A DNA stretch of 32,000 nucleotides from Opitutales bacterium (GCA_024407725.1 JAKSVZ010000007.1:10192-42191), one strand, 5' to 3'; positions 2,730-31,949 are shown, counted from the stretch's first letter. Notes: generated by a model from the sequence alone, not told the origin. Numbers and translations: made by a program.

Positions 2730-4397
2730 TTAAGCATCCTTATGATAAACCTGATCAAAGGCATCGCTTAAGCTGGTCAATTCTTGTCCTGCCGGTATAG
2801 CATTCAAGGATTTAACCTCTTCAGAGAAGCGCGAATCATCGTACTTCAACGCCTTGGTCGACAAGCAAATACGACGCTCTTTCTTATCAATTTTAATGAT
2901 ACGAGCCTCGATTTCGTCTCCAACTTTATAGGTTTCCTTTAAGTTCTTACCTTGCAGATCTTCCATTTGAGCCATCGGGATGAATCCATCGATTCCTCCT
3001 TCAAAGCCTACAAACACACCACGTTCGATAACCTTAACAATCTTATTTTTAACGACTTTACCTACGTGATATAAGGTTTCAATGTCTTCCCATGGATCCT
3101 TGGTTAGCTGCTTAACGCCCAAAGAAATTTGATGCTTTTCGGTGTCCACGTCTAATACAACCGCTTCTACCTCATCGCCTTCCTTAAATAGATCACTGGG
3201 CTTATTAACTTTATGAGTCCAATCCATTTGGGATACGTGGATCATTCCATCAATCCCTTCTGCAAGCTTAACAAACACACCAAAGGGGGTTAAATTACAA
3301 ACCGTACCCTTTACACGAGCTCCCTTAGGATAATCATATTGAACGGTATCCCAAGGATTTTGGGTCAATTGACGCAAGCTGAGCAATAACGTTTGGGTAT
3401 CTTTATTAACCTCCACAACTTTAGCATCCACCTCATCCCCTTCGTGAAGCATTTCACTTGCCTTATGGAAGCGCTTGGTCCAAGATAACTCGCTCACCTT
3501 AATAAATCCTTCAAGACCCTCTGCAACCTTAACATAAGCGCCACGATCCAATACGGTAGAAACCGTTCCGTGAACCGTCATGCCAACAGGGAATTGTTGA
3601 TCCATATGTTCCCATGGGTTCTTCTGAAGCTGCTTCATACCAACCGAAATCCGTTCTTGTTCCAAATCGACTTCGATTACCATAACCTCAACCTCATCAC
3701 CCACTTTGAGCTTATCACTAGGACGAGCAATGCGCTCCCAAGAAATGTTGGTGATATGCAGGAATCCATCGATACCGTCGAGGTCAATAAAGGCTCCGAA
3801 ATCGGTAACGTTCTTCACGATTCCCTTGCAAACACAACCCACAGTCAGTTTGCTTAACGCTTCCTGACGCTTTTGTTTCCGATGGTCTTCAATCAATTCC
3901 CTACGTGAAACAACAATGTTCTTATGCGCGCGATTGATCTTGATAATTTTTACATCTACCGTTTGACCGATATACTGCTCTAAATTCTTAGGAGCTACCA
4001 CGTCCACATGAGAAGCTGGGCAAAAAGCATCAACACCGATATAGATAACCAAACCGCCATTGATTTTGGATTTGACCACTCCAGCTAACTCAGTGCCTTC
4101 GGAACATTTCTCCAAAATAATCTCCCAGTTCTTCTGTTGCTGCGCTCGGCTGTAAGATACCACCGGACGTCCATCGACTGATTCTACGCGATCCACATAA
4201 ACCTCAATCGAATCCCCAACCTTCATATCGTCCAACTGTAAAAATTCACTCGTTGGCACCAAGCACTCTGATTTTGCGCCGATATCTACGGTTACTCCAT
4301 CCTCGCGGATGCCGGTAATTGTTCCCGGAACAATACTATTGGCCTTTAACCGTTTAAAGGTGTCTGCATTCAACAGACGATCCATTACTTCTGACAT
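2730..4397 (-). CDS. rpsA: 30S ribosomal protein S1
   Basis: 555 aa ORF made of six tandem S1 OB-fold repeats with a recurring pattern (G..v.G.V......G.FV.l..gidG..h.S). Confidence 0.95.
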   Translation of the reverse strand: MSEVMDRLLNADTFKRLKANSIVPGTITGIREDGVTVDIGAKSECLVPTSEFLQLDDMKVGDSIEVYVDRVESVDGRPVVSYSRAQQQKNWEIILEKCSEGTELAGVVKSKINGGLVIYIGVDAFCPASHVDVVAPKNLEQYIGQTVDVKIIKINRAHKNIVVSRRELIEDHRKQKRQEALSKLTVGCVCKGIVKNVTDFGAFIDLDGIDGFLHITNISWERIARPSDKLKVGDEVEVMVIEVDLEQERISVGMKQLQKNPWEHMDQQFPVGMTVHGTVSTVLDRGAYVKVAEGLEGFIKVSELSWTKRFHKASEMLHEGDEVDAKVVEVNKDTQTLLLSLRQLTQNPWDTVQYDYPKGARVKGTVCNLTPFGVFVKLAEGIDGMIHVSQMDWTHKVNKPSDLFKEGDEVEAVVLDVDTEKHQISLGVKQLTKDPWEDIETLYHVGKVVKNKIVKVIERGVFVGFEGGIDGFIPMAQMEDLQGKNLKETYKVGDEIEARIIKIDKKERRICLSTKALKYDDSRFSEEVKSLNAIPAGQELTSLSDAFDQVYHKDA

Positions 4398-24974: not shown

Positions 24975-26234
24975 ATGTTAGATATTCACTATTTTCGTAC
25001 GTCCTTTGACGAAGTTTGCCGTCGATTGGCCACCAAACATTTTACGTGCGATTTACAACAAGTTGCCCAATTGGATAAGGCACGCGTAGAACAACAGCAA
25101 GCATTTGAAGCCTCAAAAGCCGAACTGAATGCCTTAAGTAAAAACCTAGGTAAATTGGACCCAAAATCCCCTGCATTGGCCCAAGCTCGGTAGCAAGCAA
25201 CCGCCCTTTCTAAAGTTACCAAAGAAAAAGAAGCCGCGTATAAGCAGGCCGAACAAGCATTTAAAGAAACTTGGCTCAGCATTCCGAACGTACCAGCTCC
25301 ATCCGTTCCCGTCGGCAAAAGCGATAAGGATAACGTTGAGCTGTATCAATGGCATCCACAAAACGAGGATTTTTCCCACGCCTGCCCTCATTACGATCTG
25401 CCCAATTTCGAACAAAAAATCGACTTTTCGCGCGGTTCTAAAGTCATGGGTGCTGGCTTTCCGTTTTATGTCGGCGAACTCGCCTATTTGGTACGCGCGT
25501 TAATTGCATTCTTTTTGGATTCTGCCCGCAAAAACGGTTATTTGGAAATCCTACCGCCCCTATTGGTTAACGCCGACAGCGCATTGGCAACCGGTCAGCT
25601 GCCCGATAAAGAAAACATGATGTATCGCACGGACGAAGGCTATTTAATTCCAACCGCCGAAGTTCCCATCACGAATTTTTACCGCAATGAAATTTTCACC
25701 GAAGCAGATTTGCCCATCAAACGTTGCGCTTATTCCGCCTGTTTCCGCCGTGAAGCTGGCAGTTGGGGTAAAGATGTACGGGGATTAAACCGACTGCATC
25801 AGTTCGACAAAGTAGAATTGGTTCAATGGGTTTTGCCACAGGAAAGCACCCAAGCGTTGTTAACATTAAGGTCCCACGCAGAAGATTTGCTTAAACAATT
25901 GGAAATCCCCTACCGCGTGCTAGCCATTTGCACCGGAGATATGGGCTTCCCCCATGCCGAACAATACGATTTGGAGGTCTGGGCAGCCGGACAACAACGT
26001 TGGTTGGAAGTATCCAGCTGCAGCTGCTTTACCGATTTTCAGGCAAGGCGCGCCAACATCCGTTACAAAACGAGCTCGGGCAACCTAGAATTTGTTCATA
26101 CCCTGAATGGCTCTGGACTCGCTATTCCACGCGTATTAGCAGCTATTCTTGAAAACAATCACCGCGGCAATGGCGAAATTAGTATTCCATCGGTTTTACA
26201 CAAATGGTTACCGATGACTAAAATCCATTTTTAA
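24975..26234 (+). pseudogene. serS: Seryl-tRNA synthetase reading frame interrupted by one in-frame TAG at 25191-25193
   Basis: ORFs 24975-25193 and 25446-26234 are in the same frame. The stretch between them translates without further stops to QATALSKVTKEKEAAYKQAEQAFKETWLSIPNVPAPSVPVGKSDKDN..., the canonical SerRS arm/core junction. The total is 420 codons, a normal SerRS length. Confidence 0.85.
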
Positions 26235-26299: not shown

Positions 26300-27142
26300 A
26301 TGAAGCTTTTTAAACAATTATTGTTCATCAGTTCTAGCGTGGTAACATTTCCATTGTATGCTGGAGAAGCAGCATCAACAGCCGAAGGTATACAAAATCC
26401 ACCCGTAGCTGAAGCTGCAAAAAATGCAAACGAAGCGAAAGCTCCTCTTTCTCAAGAACAGAAATTACTCCATTTCAAGACACTTGGATGGATGCAATTC
26501 ATGCAAAGCGGCCTCAAAAACCTAGATATGCAAGGTCAAGAAGCTGAAGCATTCATGGCTGGAATTAAATCCGCCTTGAATAATGAAAAAGCTCCCTGTG
26601 ATTTAGGCGCCAGCATGGATGATTTACAAAAATTTATGCAAGAACGCTTTTCAGAAAACGAGAAAAAACGTCAGGCAGAAATCAAAACAACCGCTGCCAA
26701 AAACCGTGCTGCTGGTGAAGCTTGGCTCAAGGATGTCCTTTCCAAAGATTCATCCATTAAAAAGACCCTTTCCGGCTTAGCCTATAAAATTAAGCGCAGC
26801 GGAAATAAAGCACGTGTAGCCGACGAAGATAAGGTTGAAATCCTATACGTAGGTAAGCGCATTGATGGTAGCGTTTTCGACCGTTCGGATAACAAAAAAC
26901 CTGTAACTTTGAACATCAAGAACGTTATTGCTGGTATCAAAGAAGGGTTAGCGTTGATCGGTGAAGGCGGAGAAATCGTACTCTACACACCGGATAATTT
27001 AGCCTACGGAGAATATGATATCCCCGATATCCCAGCAGGTTCCACCTTGGTATTTGAAATCAAATTGCAGAAGGTTATCAAACCGGTTCAAGAAGAAACC
27101 GCAACTCCAGCTGCTAAATCAGAAGCGCAAAAGCCAAACTAA
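26300..27142 (+). CDS. mip: Mip-type FKBP peptidyl-prolyl cis-trans isomerase with signal peptide
   Basis: 280 aa ORF with an N-terminal signal-like MKLFKQLLFISSSVVTFPLYA, a helical FKBP_N-like region, and a C-terminal FKBP domain (..YVGKRIDGSVFD...GIKEGLALIGEGGEIVLYTP..AYGE...IPAGSTLVFEIKL). Confidence 0.88.
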   Translation: MKLFKQLLFISSSVVTFPLYAGEAASTAEGIQNPPVAEAAKNANEAKAPLSQEQKLLHFKTLGWMQFMQSGLKNLDMQGQEAEAFMAGIKSALNNEKAPCDLGASMDDLQKFMQERFSENEKKRQAEIKTTAAKNRAAGEAWLKDVLSKDSSIKKTLSGLAYKIKRSGNKARVADEDKVEILYVGKRIDGSVFDRSDNKKPVTLNIKNVIAGIKEGLALIGEGGEIVLYTPDNLAYGEYDIPDIPAGSTLVFEIKLQKVIKPVQEETATPAAKSEAQKPN

Positions 27143-27150
27143 TTGGCTTT
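27130..27150. terminator. Bidirectional hairpin T1 overlapping the mip stop codon
   Basis: Stem AAAGCCAA/TTGGCTTT with a 5 nt loop that contains the TAA stop. A-run and T-run flanks make it usable from both strands, although the U-tracts are short. Confidence 0.55.
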
Positions 27151-27156
27151 GCGTTT

Positions 27157-27260
27157 AGGCTTGACTCAACAAGCACTTGTTCGGTAAAATGTCCATGACC
27201 ATTTATGGAGCAAGATATAATGTTTTGATTGTAAGCATAAGCTCCATCATAGTCAAGCCT
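27157..27260. repeat. Convergent-promoter cassette U1 (IR AGGCTTGACT / AGTCAAGCCT, 84 nt spacer)
   Basis: Perfect 10 bp inverted repeat. Plus strand: TTGACT(27161-66)-18-TAAAAT(27185-90). Minus strand: TTGACT(27256-51)-17-TACAAT(27233-28). Confidence 0.75.
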
Positions 27261-27474
27261 TTTGCTTACACCCCCTTTTTTTAAACTATCATTCAAGCCT
27301 TTCCATGGGAGTTAGTCCAAATAGGATGGTCATGGCATCCTAAAGCACGCCAACATCCTCCTTGGGTACCCCATCCGGTAGTATTTTTAGGATTTTTTCT
27401 GAGTTTTCCGAAGAGGAACTAGGTTAAATTTTCAACCCAAAACAATAAACAAAACACCCATTCGCGCCTTTTTA

Positions 27475-27573
27475 GCTTGACAAAATTGCTGCTGGTGGTG
27501 TATTAATATGTTGTACTCTTCACCATTGGCAAATGATTTCATGAATATGAATAGAGACTTTTACAGGTCTAAG
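27475..27573. repeat. Decayed cassette U2a (GCTTGAC / GTCTAAG, 85 nt spacer)
   Basis: Plus strand: TTGACA(27477-82)-18-TATTAA. Minus strand: TTAGAC(27572-67)-17-CATATT. The right arm has a 1 nt insertion relative to GTCAAG, but the family spacing is retained. Confidence 0.5.
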
Positions 27574-27724
27574 AATTCATGCGTTTTGCAAGTAGCAGGT
27601 ACTTAAACCATCTAATAATGCCATATAGTATAAGATTATATCACATCCTATTAGGGTATCTTTATAATCGGCATTCATATAAAACAAGCATTACTCATCA
27701 GCTTCTATCAATCCAACCAGTGAT

Positions 27725-27753
27725 ATTGTAATAAATTCATGACTAAGCGTCAA
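27725..27753 (-). promoter_or_regulatory. Orphan near-consensus sigma-70-type promoter (right-arm-like CGTCAAGG)
   Basis: The minus strand reads TTGACG-cttagtcatgaatttat(17)-TACAAT. No recognisable left arm is present 85 nt upstream. Confidence 0.5.
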
Positions 27754-27893
27754 GGTTTATTACAAAGGCCCAAGCAAATACCGATAATTGCTCAAAAGGT
27801 AAGCAATAAACGCTAATCTCTTTATACAAGCTTGTACTTTATCCAATTTACGATAAGTGGGCGCCGCGGAATATTGACAAGGCATGCTATCTC

Positions 27894-27978
27894 GGTATTT
27901 TGAAGAATTTCAGAAGGTTATCTGACCGGTTCAAGAAGAAACCGCAATCCAATTAAAGCTGAAGAACAAAAGCCGAAT
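27894..27978 (+). pseudogene. Remnant copy of the mip 3' end
   Basis: 27911-27947 matches mip 27068-27104 at 35 of 37 positions by hand alignment. One of the two changes creates an in-frame TGA. The flanks align more loosely (ggtattt.gaa... upstream, caaaagcc downstream). Confidence 0.7.
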
Positions 27979-27991
27979 TCATTCGGCTTTT
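27968..27991. terminator. Bidirectional hairpin T3, homologous to T1
   Basis: Stem AAAAGCCGA/TCGGCTTTT with a 6 nt loop. It sits in the same position relative to the mip remnant and cassette U3 as T1 does relative to mip and U1. Confidence 0.6.
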
Positions 27992-27995
27992 CCTT

Positions 27996-28100
27996 AAAGC
28001 TTGACAATGAGTGGGATTCTTGATAAAAGTATGATCCCCATTTAGTCGCAATGACCCAATAAATGAATTTTATATTTAAACTCAACAAAGGTCAAGCTTT
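27996..28100. repeat. Convergent-promoter cassette U3 (IR AAAGCTTGAC / GTCAAGCTTT, 85 nt spacer)
   Basis: Perfect 10 bp inverted repeat. Plus strand: TTGACA(28001-06)-17-TAAAAG(28024-29), preceded by TGa (extended -10). Minus strand: TTGACC(28095-90)-17-TAAAAT(28072-67). Confidence 0.75.
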
Positions 28101-28228
28101 TACTGCGTAGAGTCATAACACAAATACCTTACTGAGTCATGAAACAAAATAATACGGTATAATTAAGGTATTCAAATTGGTTCTCGTCAGTATTTTGCAT
28201 CAAAAAATCCATTGGCTGTGCTTTTAAA

Positions 28229-28325
28229 CCTTAACAGCTAGCGGTAGAGTTAAAATTACTTTGACTCATCAAGAACTGCATGTGTATAAGTTGATTTTAC
28301 GCCTGAAGCTTACCAGAGGCAAGCT
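28229..28325. repeat. Probable decayed cassette U3b (CCTTAAC / G-CAAGC, about 83 nt spacer)
   Basis: The right end AGGCAAGCTTT equals the U3 right arm minus one T. On the minus strand it still gives TTGCCT-17-TAAAAT (28322-28294). The left end aaaCCTTAACa resembles the left arm with G->A. Confidence 0.35.
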
Positions 28326-28382
28326 TTATTTGATTCCATAAATAAAAAAGCGGAGATACACAAACAAGGATTAAAACCTTCG

Positions 28383-28408
28383 AAAAGCCGCATTAAATCG
28401 CGGTTTTT
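28383..28408. terminator. Bidirectional hairpin T4, homologous to T1 and T3
   Basis: AAAAGCCGC-attaaatc-GCGGTTTTT forms a 9 bp stem including one G:U pair, followed by a 5 U run on the plus strand. Confidence 0.55.
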
Positions 28409-28421
28409 GAAGCATTTTTAA

Positions 28422-28521
28422 ACTTGACGAATGGGGAAAAGTTCTATATAATAGAAAAATTCTATTCCTCTTAGATCATATAGCACAAAAATTATATATA
28501 ATATCCTACTGAAAGTCAAGT
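28422..28521. repeat. Convergent-promoter cassette U4 (IR ACTTGAC / GTCAAGT, 86 nt spacer)
   Basis: Plus strand: TTGACG(28424-29)-17-TATAAT(28447-52). Minus strand: TTGACT(28519-14)-17-TATAAT(28496-91). Both -10 boxes are consensus. The cassette ends 20 nt from the stop codon of the sigma-54 activator gene. Confidence 0.75.
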
Positions 28522-28540
28522 CTGATTTAATAGCCTAAGC

Positions 28541-29839
28541 CTATAAAAGATGGTACTTTTGGAGTTTACGATAAAGTGTGCGCCGTGGGATATTCAGCAA
28601 ACGAGCCACCTCGGATTTATTGCCATTGGTTTTTTGAAGCATTTGACGCAACATAGACGCCTCATCTTGCGAAAATCCTATTGATACTTCGGGAGCTAAG
28701 AATTTTGCATCCAAATCCGATAAAGTAATGGGATTACCTGCATGCATAATCACTGCATTTTCAGCAAAATTGCGCAATTCGCGGACATTGCCAGGCCACA
28801 GATAATCTTCCAACACACCGGCAACTTCGGGCGACAGAACAGGAGCTTTTAAATGGTTTTCGCGCGCAAAAACTTTTAAGTAGTGCTGAACCAAAGGAAC
28901 GATATCCTCCCGACGCTCTCTTAAAGATGGTACGTGGATTTCAACCACATTGAGTCGATAATACAAATCCTGACGAAAACGCCCCTGTTCCACCTCGGTT
29001 TTTAGATTCCGATTGGTGGCACATACCAAGCGTACATCTAGGTAAATCGGCTGAGTTCCTCCTACGCGCTCAATGGTTTTTGTCTCCAAAAAGCGCAACA
29101 GTTTGATTTGAGTCGGCAAATCGATTTCGCCAATTTCATCCAAAAACAAGGTACCATTTTGTGCCGTTTCGAACAAACCGATACGGCGTTGCAAAGCGCC
29201 TGTAAAAGCACCGCGCTCATAACCAAACAGACCTGATTCCAACAAATTCACTGGTAAAGCCGCGCAGTGGATGGGCACAAATTTTTCAGCAGCGCGCGTA
29301 CTCAGTTGATGCAATTGCTGTGCTACCAATTCCTTACCGGTTCCGGTTTCGCCGGTAATCAACACGGTTGTTTTGGTCGGAGCTACCAATTGAATTTGCT
29401 GCATCAATCGATTGAACGCAGGAGACGAACCCAGCATGTTCGGATTTGCCTCTAACGATGCAGCCGGTTTTTCAGGATTATAACGCTCGGTCATCGCACG
29501 CTCAACCATGGCTTCCAGTTGCTCCAACTGAATGGGTTTACTGATAAAATCATAAGCCCCATGTTTCATAGCCTCCACAGCCACCTCAATGGTCCCATAA
29601 GCCGTCATCAGGATGCAGATTGGATGATTGGGTAATTGCAGCGTTTTATCGATTACGCTCATTCCGCTCGCCTGCCCCATGCGCAAATCCGTAATAACCA
29701 CCGCAAAACGTTCGGTATCCAGCAACCGAAAGGCTTCTTCGGGCGACGATGCGGTAAACACATCAAACTTGTCCTCAAACGCCTGCGCTAAGCCATCGCG
29801 CGTATGTTTTTCGTCATCAACAATCAGTAAGCGTTCCAT
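28541..29839 (-). CDS. Sigma-54-dependent response regulator (NtrC/AtoC/CtcC type: REC + AAA+ + Fis-type HTH)
   Basis: REC domain (LIVDDE...VITDLRM), AAA+ domain with Walker A GETGTGKE and the sigma-54 contact loop ERGAFTGA, and a C-terminal HTH (NKSEVARLLNIPRRTLYRKL). The start is chosen at MERLLIVDDE (29839), which removes the overlap with plsC. Confidence 0.9.
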   Translation of the reverse strand: MERLLIVDDEKHTRDGLAQAFEDKFDVFTASSPEEAFRLLDTERFAVVITDLRMGQASGMSVIDKTLQLPNHPICILMTAYGTIEVAVEAMKHGAYDFISKPIQLEQLEAMVERAMTERYNPEKPAASLEANPNMLGSSPAFNRLMQQIQLVAPTKTTVLITGETGTGKELVAQQLHQLSTRAAEKFVPIHCAALPVNLLESGLFGYERGAFTGALQRRIGLFETAQNGTLFLDEIGEIDLPTQIKLLRFLETKTIERVGGTQPIYLDVRLVCATNRNLKTEVEQGRFRQDLYYRLNVVEIHVPSLRERREDIVPLVQHYLKVFARENHLKAPVLSPEVAGVLEDYLWPGNVRELRNFAENAVIMHAGNPITLSDLDAKFLAPEVSIGFSQDEASMLRQMLQKTNGNKSEVARLLNIPRRTLYRKLQKYHLL

Positions 29840-29843
29840 TGTT

Positions 29844-30485
29844 TTAGGCTTCTTTTGGATTTTTGATTGCACCAATCGCTTGCATCACCCGATCGCTCAT
29901 TGCCTGCAACGGATCCGCGCTGGTTTGGCACTCTTTAAAATCCACATCCGGCATTAAAGGTTTTCCAAAAACAATCTGTAAACGCGGTTTAAAATTTGGC
30001 AAAACCTTTCCTTTTGGCCACGCTTGGAAGGAGCCAAAAATGCGCACAGGAACCACCGGTACATGCGCTTTCATCACGAACAACCCAATTCCCTTTTTCC
30101 CCCGTTGCAATTCACCGGTTACCGAGCGCGTACCTTCTGGGAACATAATAACCACTTGATCTCGGTTCAACAAATCAAGCACTTGGCGGATGGTTTGGAA
30201 ATCATTTCCTTTGTCGCGATCAACGCCCAACATACATAAGCGTTTAAAAAGCCAACCAATCCCATTTTTAAATAACGTACGCCGCGCAAATGAATAAATC
30301 GGCTCACGAACCCTGCAATTGCTTACAATCATCGGAGGATCCCAATAGCTCACATGATTGCCTGCCAAAATAACCCCGCCGCTCTGTGGAATGTTTTCAA
30401 GTCCGTACACCGTTCCCCGATACAACACCCTAAAGGCAACGCGAAATAAAAAGCAAGCGGTTCGATACCAAATATTTGATTTCAC
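29844..30485 (-). CDS. plsC: 1-acyl-sn-glycerol-3-phosphate acyltransferase
   Basis: 213 aa ORF with the HX4D motif (GNHVSYWD) and FPEGTRS, typical of the PlsC family. Confidence 0.85.
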   Translation of the reverse strand: MKSNIWYRTACFLFRVAFRVLYRGTVYGLENIPQSGGVILAGNHVSYWDPPMIVSNCRVREPIYSFARRTLFKNGIGWLFKRLCMLGVDRDKGNDFQTIRQVLDLLNRDQVVIMFPEGTRSVTGELQRGKKGIGLFVMKAHVPVVPVRIFGSFQAWPKGKVLPNFKPRLQIVFGKPLMPDVDFKECQTSADPLQAMSDRVMQAIGAIKNPKEA

Positions 30486-31654: not shown

Positions 31655-31729
31655 GCGAGCGTAGCTCAGAGGTAGAGCGTCACCTTCCCAAGGTGGACGT
31701 CGTGGGTTCGAACCCCATCGCTCGCTCCA
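31655..31729 (+). tRNA. tRNA-Gly (anticodon CCC)
   Basis: GCGAGCG-TA-GCTC-AGAGGT-AGAGC-G-TCACC-TTCCCAA-GGTGG-ACGTC-GTGGG-TTCGAAC-CCCAT-CGCTCGC-T-CCA. Confidence 0.92.
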
Positions 31730-31850: not shown

Positions 31851-31949
31851 GCTTGACAAACAAGTAAATTGATGGTAAATTATAAATACTCTAGGATTTA
31901 CAAGACTCAATTATATATATTTTAATTGTAAATACTCCTCTAGTCAAGC
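31851..31949. repeat. Convergent-promoter cassette U5 (IR GCTTGAC / GTCAAGC, 85 nt spacer), dispersed copy
   Basis: Plus strand: TTGACA(31853-58)-17-TAAATT. Minus strand: TTGACT(31947-42)-17-TAAAAT(31924-19). It lies 3.3 kb from the main array and 120 nt after tRNA-Gly. Confidence 0.7.

Follow-up and report, generated by a model that had tools for sequence, protein, structure and literature searches.

The intergenic spacer between mip and a gene for a sigma54-dependent response regulator in an Opitutales bacterium (GCA_024407725.1, JAKSVZ010000007.1:10192-42191; the whole 32,000-nt stretch analysed is referred to as the window, with positions counted from its first letter) contains several copies of a ~98-bp unit, each of which consists, judged by its sequence, of two opposed sigma70-type promoters that are close to consensus and are directed at one another. 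The interpretation favored here, to which we assign a probability of roughly 55%, is that these are conserved, locally multiplied face-to-face cassettes that would give short convergent RNAs. An initial annotation of the same DNA had proposed that related small RNAs of ~95-105 nt are made from the minus strand, each having a strong promoter, a variable body, a GUCAAGC box and a terminal hairpin, and those RNAs would represent one half of the output. The anatomy of the cassettes makes short RNAs of this kind plausible.

Face-to-face promoter units

The spacer extends from 27143 to 28540 (1398 bp, non-coding) and hosts both the promoter units and three hairpins, T1, T3 and T4. On each strand the cassette has the consensus aaaGC-TTGACn, 16-18 bp, TAnAAT, and at the right end of a unit the left end recurs in mirrored form as the minus-strand promoter. 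The -35 starts lie 94-96 bp apart, the two -10 boxes are separated by 37-40 bp, and the predicted start sites of the opposing promoters are ~25 bp apart. Three intact copies (U1, U3 and U4) and at least two decayed copies occupy the spacer. Related modules elsewhere, as anticipated by the initial annotation, were indeed found, as a fourth intact unit (U5) in the window and as units at the same spacer in related genomes. The units and half-sites of the window are as follows.

U1, 27159-27258, both strands: intact unit; plus-strand promoter TTGACT-18-TAAAAT (27161-27190), minus-strand promoter TTGACT-17-TACAAT (27256-27228); predicted starts ~27197 (plus) and ~27221 (minus).
Hairpin TGTAAGCA...TGCTTACA followed by CCCCCTTTTTTT, 27230-27284, plus strand: likely terminator of a ~87-nt rightward U1 RNA; the right -35 lies in its loop.
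U2a, 27475-27575, no strand assigned: decayed unit; left half GCTTGACA with a poor -10 (TATTAA), right box broken by a 1-nt insertion (GTCTAAG).
U2b, 27725-27753, minus strand: intact leftward promoter TTGACG-17-TACAAT; the left partner would be expected at ~27655, where there is no TTGAC box.
U3, 27999-28097, both strands: intact unit; plus-strand promoter TTGACA-17-TAAAAG (weak -10), minus-strand promoter TTGACC-17-TAAAAT (28095-28067); predicted starts ~28036 (plus) and ~28060 (minus).
Extra half-site, 28261-28290, plus strand: TTGACT-18-TATAAG, matching the left half of U1 at 88% over 17 nt, without a canonical partner.
U4, 28422-28521, both strands: intact unit, both -10 boxes perfect; plus-strand promoter TTGACG-17-TATAAT (28424-28452), minus-strand promoter TTGACT-17-TATAAT (28519-28491); predicted starts ~28459 (plus) and ~28484 (minus).
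U5, 31851-31949, both strands: intact unit without an adjacent hairpin, 120 nt past tRNA-Gly(CCC); plus-strand promoter TTGACA-17-TAAATT, minus-strand promoter TTGACT-17-TAAAAT; predicted starts ~31889 (plus) and ~31912 (minus).

Beyond these, TTCAAGCC at 27293-27300, 40 bp past the right box of U1, is a degenerate copy of a right box including its flank, and the window stops 51 nt after U5.

The minus-strand promoters that the initial annotation assigned to U1, U3 and U4 are present with the consensus matches and starts listed above, but they do not form the more consistent set: both strands bear equally good promoters across the units, and plus-strand RNAs are predicted just as strongly. The sigma70 hexamer score is 10-11/12 on both strands of U1, U4 and U5 and on the minus strand of U3, the plus-strand -10 of U3 being TAAAAG. 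The GUCAAGC box fares differently, as it is the reverse complement of GCTTGAC and, on the evidence of the accompanying hexamers, the -35 of the opposing plus-strand promoter rather than an RNA motif. A -10-like hexamer lies 16-18 bp past every left box, and six of the eight fit TAnAAT, with U3 (TAAAAG) and U5 (TAAATT) as the exceptions; the plus-strand -10 is TAAAAT in U1, TATAAT in U4 and, among the relatives, TAAAAT in L001 and TAACAT in L005.

These hexamers bear directly on the possibility that the functional products are the ~95-105-nt minus-strand RNAs themselves, a family with a single-stranded GUCAAGC recognition box and a terminator hairpin, the plus-strand hexamers being incidental. 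The promoter-to-hairpin geometry required for such a family is found at U1, U3, U4 and the L001-type unit, and the predicted leftward RNAs have a hairpin at each end with an open linker between, with z-scores of -4.5 for L001 and -2.5 for U1. The internal GGGAT...ATCCC stem described for the U3 RNA also exists. Further, in the ancestral layout proposed below, this RNA and the regulator mRNA would have one terminator in common, a feature of known small RNAs from 3' untranslated regions. However, an RNA motif does not predict a -10-like hexamer 16-18 bp past every left box, the identical box in mirrored form is the -35 of the minus-strand promoter itself, and the folding z-scores of U3 (-1.0) and U4 (-1.8) are unremarkable. 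Together with the evidence from the hairpins presented in the next section, this leaves a dedicated minus-strand family an unlikely account of the locus.

The promoter elements stand out from the sequence around them. Across 13 half-sites, information content peaks only at TTGAC, TAnAAT and the short upstream aaaGC, with none in the spacers or the centre. Nine of the 61 TTGAC sites in the window have a -10 box at 16-18 bp, all of them within the mip/regulator spacer or U5 and eight of them unit promoters, and none of the remaining 52 sites has one. Pairs of the form CTTGAC-N70-100-GTCAAG occur four times in the window against an expectation of 0.03, and GCTTGAC occurs eight times against 2.8.

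A separate reading of the same boxes takes aaaGCTTGAC...GTCAAGCttt as protein binding or crossover sites, used by a recombinase, the transposase of a miniature element, an integron-type system or a regulator, with the likeness to promoters being secondary. Unit ends that repeat each other in inverted form over 7-11 bp and lie a constant distance apart, boxes that are one base off the integron core sites RYYYAAC/GTTRRRY, the clustering of rearrangements around the boxes and the joint decay of both units in L003 are all compatible with this. It is nevertheless very improbable, as it leaves the conserved -10 hexamers at 17 bp unexplained, the duplication junctions fall at gene-end microhomologies and not in the boxes, target-site duplications are absent, and the bodies of the units are unrelated, unlike those of miniature transposon copies. 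There is also no long imperfect attC hairpin. Two specific candidates were rejected: an integron attC site, where only the terminal 7-10 nt pair in single-strand DNA folds (z of -1.4 to -1.5 for U4 and U5) and the core is off by one base, and a miniature inverted-repeat transposable element, where body identity is at the level of shuffled sequence and flanking direct repeats are lacking.

Putative terminator hairpins

The three hairpins described beside U1, U3 and U4 are located where the initial annotation placed them and are related, the likeness of T1 and T3 stemming from local duplication.

T1, 27123-27156, both strands: A-run, GC stem, T-run; core AAAGCCAA/TTGGCTTT (27130-27150); putative mip terminator.
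T3, 27965-27993, no strand assigned: core AAAAGCCGA/TCGGCTTTT (27968-27990); duplicate of the putative mip terminator, at 74% identity with T1 and its spacer; one compensatory pair.
T4, 28378-28412, no strand assigned: core AAAAGCCGC/GCGGTTTTT (28383-28408); left arm and loop 83% identical to T3 (15/18 nt), with a G.U wobble on the plus-strand RNA only.

By its position and sequence, T1 is first of all the probable terminator of mip, a layout that is kept in relatives. Its left arm is made of the final codons of mip, its loop includes the stop codon of that gene (27140-27142), and a leftward RNA ending at T1 would be antisense to the last mip codons, as had been proposed. Compensatory pairs were tabulated by hand: the first stem pair from the loop is A-T in T1 and T3 and C-G in T4, and the second is A-T in T1 and G-C in T3 and T4, so that two stem pairs are changed on both sides with pairing kept. 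This covariation is real, but the sequences identify it as a probable terminator hairpin maintained in paralogous copies and not as an RNA family with independent members, and the selected structure previously read from it reduces to that.

The hairpins are also not neutral with respect to strand. Among six homologous hairpins, all G.U wobbles occur on the plus strand and are mismatches on the minus strand, and five of the six are more stable as plus-strand RNA (e.g., -11.7 versus -6.0 kcal/mol in L131; T1 itself folds at -16.9 kcal/mol as plus-strand and -14.3 as minus-strand RNA). Their plus-strand stabilities range from -11.7 to -16.9 kcal/mol, with A and T runs on opposite sides, and in a sliding-window scan the z-scores of the windows centred on T3 and T4 are lower for the plus strand. 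For the hairpins, wobbles and energies thus both favour the plus strand, which counts against minus-strand RNAs as the functional products. Use from the minus strand is possible owing to the A and T runs on the two sides, and to this extent the description of the hairpins as usable from either strand holds. Additionally, the hairpin is not supported as part of the repeated unit, because U5 and the unit at the tRNA-Gly locus of L130 have none, and the small RNA family lacks its terminal element at both.

Local duplication of the spacer

Two gene-end remnants lie to the left of T3 and U3.

Regulator 3' end remnant with downstream flank, 27823-27910, no strand assigned: closest to the true gene end of the relative L003 (42/49).
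mip 3' pseudo-copy, last ~60 nt, 27906-27967, plus strand: 93% identical over 42 nt, with an in-frame TGA.

The segment 27906-27947 is a 93% copy of the mip 3' end at 27063-27104, and the two remnants join at the microhomology GGTATTT(T)GAA (GGTATTTGAA / GGTTTTTTGAA). This sequence arrangement is characteristic of tandem duplication, or of a second allele having been inserted, the segment involved running from the 3' end of mip to that of the regulator gene. The left copy looks like the resident allele, because the regulator remnant is nearest to the L003 gene end and U1 is alignable with the L003 spacer. T4 is a rearranged further copy: 14 nt at 28404-28417 (TTTTTGAAGCATTT, on the right side of T4 and between T4 and U4) are exactly the regulator coding sequence at 28631-28644, a match that marks another rearrangement. 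The family likeness of T1, T3 and T4 follows from this multiplication of the block. As a side observation, the 14-nt repeat stops at the same regulator coordinate as the remnant at 27823-27910, and a shared endpoint suggests repeated template switching at one spot.

The flanks of U1 and U3 are 74-93% identical, and the copy-B flanks are gene ends that were once under coding constraint in the source allele. The bodies of the two units are unalignable (55% identity versus 49 +/- 3% for shuffles). Such shuffle-level bodies amid similar flanks had suggested hypervariable or swapped bodies, a candidate that was rejected as bodies are ~95% conserved in the L001-type genomes and U1 aligns with the decayed L003 unit.

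Units in related genomes

Relatives were ordered by the identity of their mip protein to that of the window. Exactly one unit each (d = 96) is present in L001 and L130-L133 (mip 83%) and in L005 and L006 (mip 89-91%). In L001 and L130-L133 the single unit lies in a 187-bp mip/regulator spacer; the contigs of L005 and L006 stop before any regulator gene. All four hexamers fit the consensus in the L001-type, L005 and L006 units, with a weaker plus-strand -10 (TAACAT) in L005 and L006, and the unit body is ~95% conserved among these genomes and unalignable with U1, U3 and U4. In L003 (mip 91%), a 136-bp spacer is homologous to U1, with both -35 boxes decayed (CTTAAC, TAAGTC) and a different hairpin, and the right box of its tRNA-Gly spacer unit is also lost. 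The corresponding tRNA-Gly spacer unit of L130 (12074-12173) has both boxes and no hairpin. A distant relative (mip 51%) has no unit at this locus and carries ordinary separate terminators and a different neighbouring gene, and a protein-guided scan of JGI metagenomes for this lineage found nothing.

The DNA of mip and the regulator is only 86-91% identical between the examined genomes, and an unconstrained spacer would therefore be expected near saturation. That the hexamers and their spacing persist despite this divergence indicates constraint, and L003 is the case which shows that the constraint can lapse. The best explanation of the comparison is an ancestral state with one cassette between the regulator stop codon and a two-way hairpin terminator overlapping the mip stop codon. 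Use of consensus promoters in this clade is suggested indirectly by TTGACA-18-TATACT upstream of infC in L001, L003 and L130.

It could be argued that the units are functionless leftovers, a strong promoter beside a terminator having been copied, and partly inverted, by replication slippage or illegitimate recombination, and the resulting pairs being young or harmless. Such an origin would suit a recombination-prone spacer rich in decayed half-sites, remnants of gene ends and junctions, the loss in L003 of the boxes in both units, and the frequency with which phage and metagenome matches contain inverted duplicates of promoters or palindromes spanning a whole unit. Conversely, where the window and the L001-type genomes have a unit at the same position, its four hexamers and their spacing are intact while the bodies have diverged to the level of shuffles, and the same geometry is found at two separate loci, which makes leftovers a rather unlikely explanation.

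Several further observations concern the tRNA-Gly locus and the ends of the assemblies. U5 sits past tRNA-Gly(CCC) in the window, and in L130 the unit in the spacer after tRNA-Gly(CCC) precedes a second gene, tRNA-Gly(GCC). The sequence GGCTTGACG, with the same upstream aaaca context, occurs 44 nt before tRNA-Gly(GCC) in L130 (12255-12300) and L003 (14328-14375); it has only a poor -10 (CATTGT at 18 bp) and is kept in L003 although the unit boxes there have decayed. Both tRNA-Gly genes, CCC and GCC, are present in L130 and L003, each followed by the same ~22 nt, and L001 (4400-4500; cf. L130 11915-12365) has one tRNA-Gly gene with the downstream flank of the second, as the result either of a deletion across the repeats or of an assembly collapse. 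In the Logan assembly, contig L002 stops precisely where tRNA-Gly(CCC) finishes (window position 31728), and the L005 and L006 contigs break ~140 nt past their unit; assembly breaks at these elements suggest strain variation or repeats. The genome L131 is GCA_003521725.1, in which the regulator gene was not called because of an N run at 3510-3597, without gene loss.

Flanking genes and coding potential

The units lie between two convergent genes.

mip, 26300-27142, plus strand: peptidyl-prolyl isomerase with FKBP_N and FKBP_C domains; the gene overlaps T1, with its last codons in the left arm and its stop in the loop.
Sigma54-dependent response regulator gene, 28541-29875, minus strand: Response_reg, Sigma54_activat and HTH_8 domains; convergent with mip.

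Housekeeping genes, densely packed, make up the remainder of the 32-kb window, and the context of the spacer is chromosomal. An independent Logan assembly contig matches the window at 100% over 6162 nt and covers the whole spacer; the structure is thus no assembly accident of one pipeline. A search of the window with the covariance models of Rfam 15 reached the gathering score for tRNAs only, the best E-value in the spacer being 0.55, far below gathering. Open reading frames of the spacer (41-60 aa) had no Pfam or PHROG match, and no coding potential was detected in it. In 100-nt sliding windows, z-scores of -2.5 or below were limited to the terminator hairpins and the right ends of U1 and U3, with no further structured segment in the spacer. 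A small-protein gene or type I toxin was rejected as a candidate: a leaderless-looking reading frame in U1 is broken in its L003 homologue, the versions in L001 and L005 show non-conservative changes, and there are no family matches.

Upstream of mip, serS (24975-26234, plus strand) has an in-frame TAG at codon 73 (25191-25193) where five relatives have CAG (Gln). The remainder of the gene is intact (93% identity to the L003 SerRS over 419 aa), and the TAG can be explained in two ways, by a base error or strain variant of the metagenome-assembled genome (MAG) or by a nonsense codon in an essential gene.

Proposed origin and activity of the cassettes

In the interpretation of the units as face-to-face cassettes, the block comprising the mip 3' end, terminator, cassette and regulator 3' end was multiplied in this genome through illegitimate recombination at short homologies. 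From the promoter anatomy we infer that each cassette could fire both ways, from starts ~25 bp apart. The leftward promoter would produce a ~95-105-nt RNA ending at the hairpin, the same RNA as in the initial annotation. In the one-unit genomes the leftward promoter is predicted just past the regulator stop codon, and the regulator transcript probably reads through the unit to the hairpin at the mip stop codon, as this is the only strong hairpin between the convergent genes. In the ancestral layout, the leftward RNA would then be co-linear with the end of the regulator 3' untranslated region.

Rightward, the U1 RNA is predicted to end after ~87 nt, near 27283, at its own hairpin and T run, and the U3 RNA at T4 after ~375 nt. 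The plus-strand promoter of U4 is directed into the regulator gene, 20 nt from the regulator stop codon and with no terminator between, and its RNA, like that of the cassette in relatives, would run antisense into the regulator gene and may exert antisense pressure on the regulator. The first ~25 nt of the two opposing RNAs would be complementary, and the usual -55 to +20 footprint of RNA polymerase implies that two polymerases could not be accommodated together on a unit. Mutual interference of the promoters is expected because the polymerase footprints overlap and the 5' ends are complementary.

Discussion

A number of observations weigh against short convergent RNAs as the output of the units. 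To our knowledge, no function has been established anywhere for a promoter pair with nothing to transcribe. L003 is without the -35 boxes of both units and has no visible consequence, and the cassette is therefore dispensable. Two of the plus-strand -10 hexamers depart from the consensus (TAAAAG in U3, TAACAT in L005), and that consensus is the sigma70 one, assumed for an uncultured Opitutales MAG whose own promoter specificity may differ. A strict terminator scan calls none of T1, T3 and T4, because their T runs are largely paired in an A-T extension of the stem, and termination on the minus strand would be weak at T1 and T4. Finally, the number of effective independent units is small, as U1, U3 and U4 are paralogues and the relatives amount to ~3 haplotypes.

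Should the units be active, they would constitute a compact repeated arrangement of two near-consensus promoters with only ~37 bp between them, positioned at the shared end of convergent genes that include a sigma54 activator. This would offer a clean natural system for promoter occlusion and collision, for the control of a regulator by antisense RNA arising at the 3' end of its gene, and for the emergence of small RNAs from 3' untranslated regions. There is also a lesson for genome scanning, in that the opposite strand should be checked for promoter elements before a short conserved box near a terminator is called an RNA motif.

Two-sided promoter arrangements recur in other sequence collections. 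The exact two-sided pattern is present at 69 loci of viral contigs, with centres spread over 20-50 bp, and divergent flanking genes are the commonest setting (13 divergent versus 3 convergent). Metagenomes contain 37 two-sided loci, 16 of them with 34-38-bp centres, and many are in promoter-dense, phage-like early regions. These matches are a recurring geometry and serve as background; they are not homologues of the Opitutales units. Separately, eight freshwater metagenome contigs (L135, L139, L144, L156, L138, L152, L154 and L165) carry a family of face-to-face consensus promoter pairs with a poly-C/poly-G hairpin centre of 34-48 bp and conserved AT-rich outer flanks, which, from its sequence, could be a length-variable element.

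A more radical alternative would have analogues in other bacteria and phages, at which the surplus of 34-38-bp centres in metagenomes would hint. The ~98-bp pair might be a self-contained functional module, two mutually exclusive strong promoters at a fixed distance that serve no gene, whose output would be two RNAs complementary over ~25 bp, or else a barrier of bound polymerase at the ends of genes, and which would spread and multiply by recombination within a narrow Opitutales clade. We consider this decidedly doubtful.

Comparison with known systems

No description of this arrangement was found in literature searches on face-to-face or convergent promoters, and each of the systems that resemble it does so in part. 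Face-to-face promoters form the switches of phage 186 (pR/pL) and phage P2 (Pe/Pc), and the Ecl18kI restriction-modification promoters and the biotin operon are further cases. What they have in common with the behaviour predicted for the units is a convergent promoter pair whose starts are separated by a few tens of bp, whose transcripts overlap at their 5' ends and whose members interfere with one another. In those switches, however, each promoter serves a gene beyond the other and the flanking genes diverge, whereas here mip (plus strand) and the regulator (minus strand) converge, neither promoter has a gene, and no operator or repressor is evident.

Small RNAs such as DapZ and MicL arise in 3' untranslated regions from their own promoter and share the terminator of the mRNA. 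In geometry only, the one-unit layout of the relatives and U4 are similar, with a leftward promoter past the regulator stop codon, in the same direction and with the same hairpin. Unlike those small RNAs, the Opitutales units have no conserved seed or body and include an opposing promoter within the same 98 bp. Bidirectional intrinsic terminators, in turn, occur between convergent genes, and T1 and its orthologues resemble them in being one hairpin, with an A run and a T run on its two sides, in such a position. This likeness would account for the hairpins only and not for the units, and the hairpin is biased toward the plus strand.

The closest parallel in order of parts is with the promoter-early stem-loop (PeSL) cassettes of T4-type phages, in which an A3-4G3-loop-C3T3-4 stem-loop terminator is followed by an AT-rich stretch and a near-consensus TTGACA-N17-TATAAT promoter (PMC2839356, PMC4122927). 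PeSLs are repeated, and recombination between copies leads to insertions, deletions and duplications (PMC2839356, PMC4122927). A T hairpin plus the left half of a unit has the same order of parts, and the pairs T1/U1, T3/U3 and T4/U4 are direct repeats at rearrangement junctions; the locus shows terminator-plus-promoter modules driving local duplication in a bacterial chromosome, akin to PeSLs in T4-type phages. The differences are that PeSLs occur in phage hyperplastic regions and drive a small open reading frame with a ribosome-binding site, whereas the Opitutales units occur in a chromosomal housekeeping stretch, have no open reading frame and possess a second promoter facing the first at a fixed distance.

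SdsR and RyeA of E. coli are a mutually cis-encoded pair of small RNAs (PMC6610125). They resemble the predicted output of the units as two short non-coding RNAs on opposite strands of one intergenic spot with their own promoters, with U1 providing a promoter and a terminator on both strands. There is no sequence or Rfam relationship between the two systems, and the Opitutales RNAs would overlap over only their first ~25 nt, at several loci and with unrelated bodies. Face-to-face promoters, cis-encoded RNA pairs and terminator-promoter cassettes are thus each known, and what is new is a conserved face-to-face cassette of fixed geometry at gene ends, multiplied in this genome and limited to a narrow clade.

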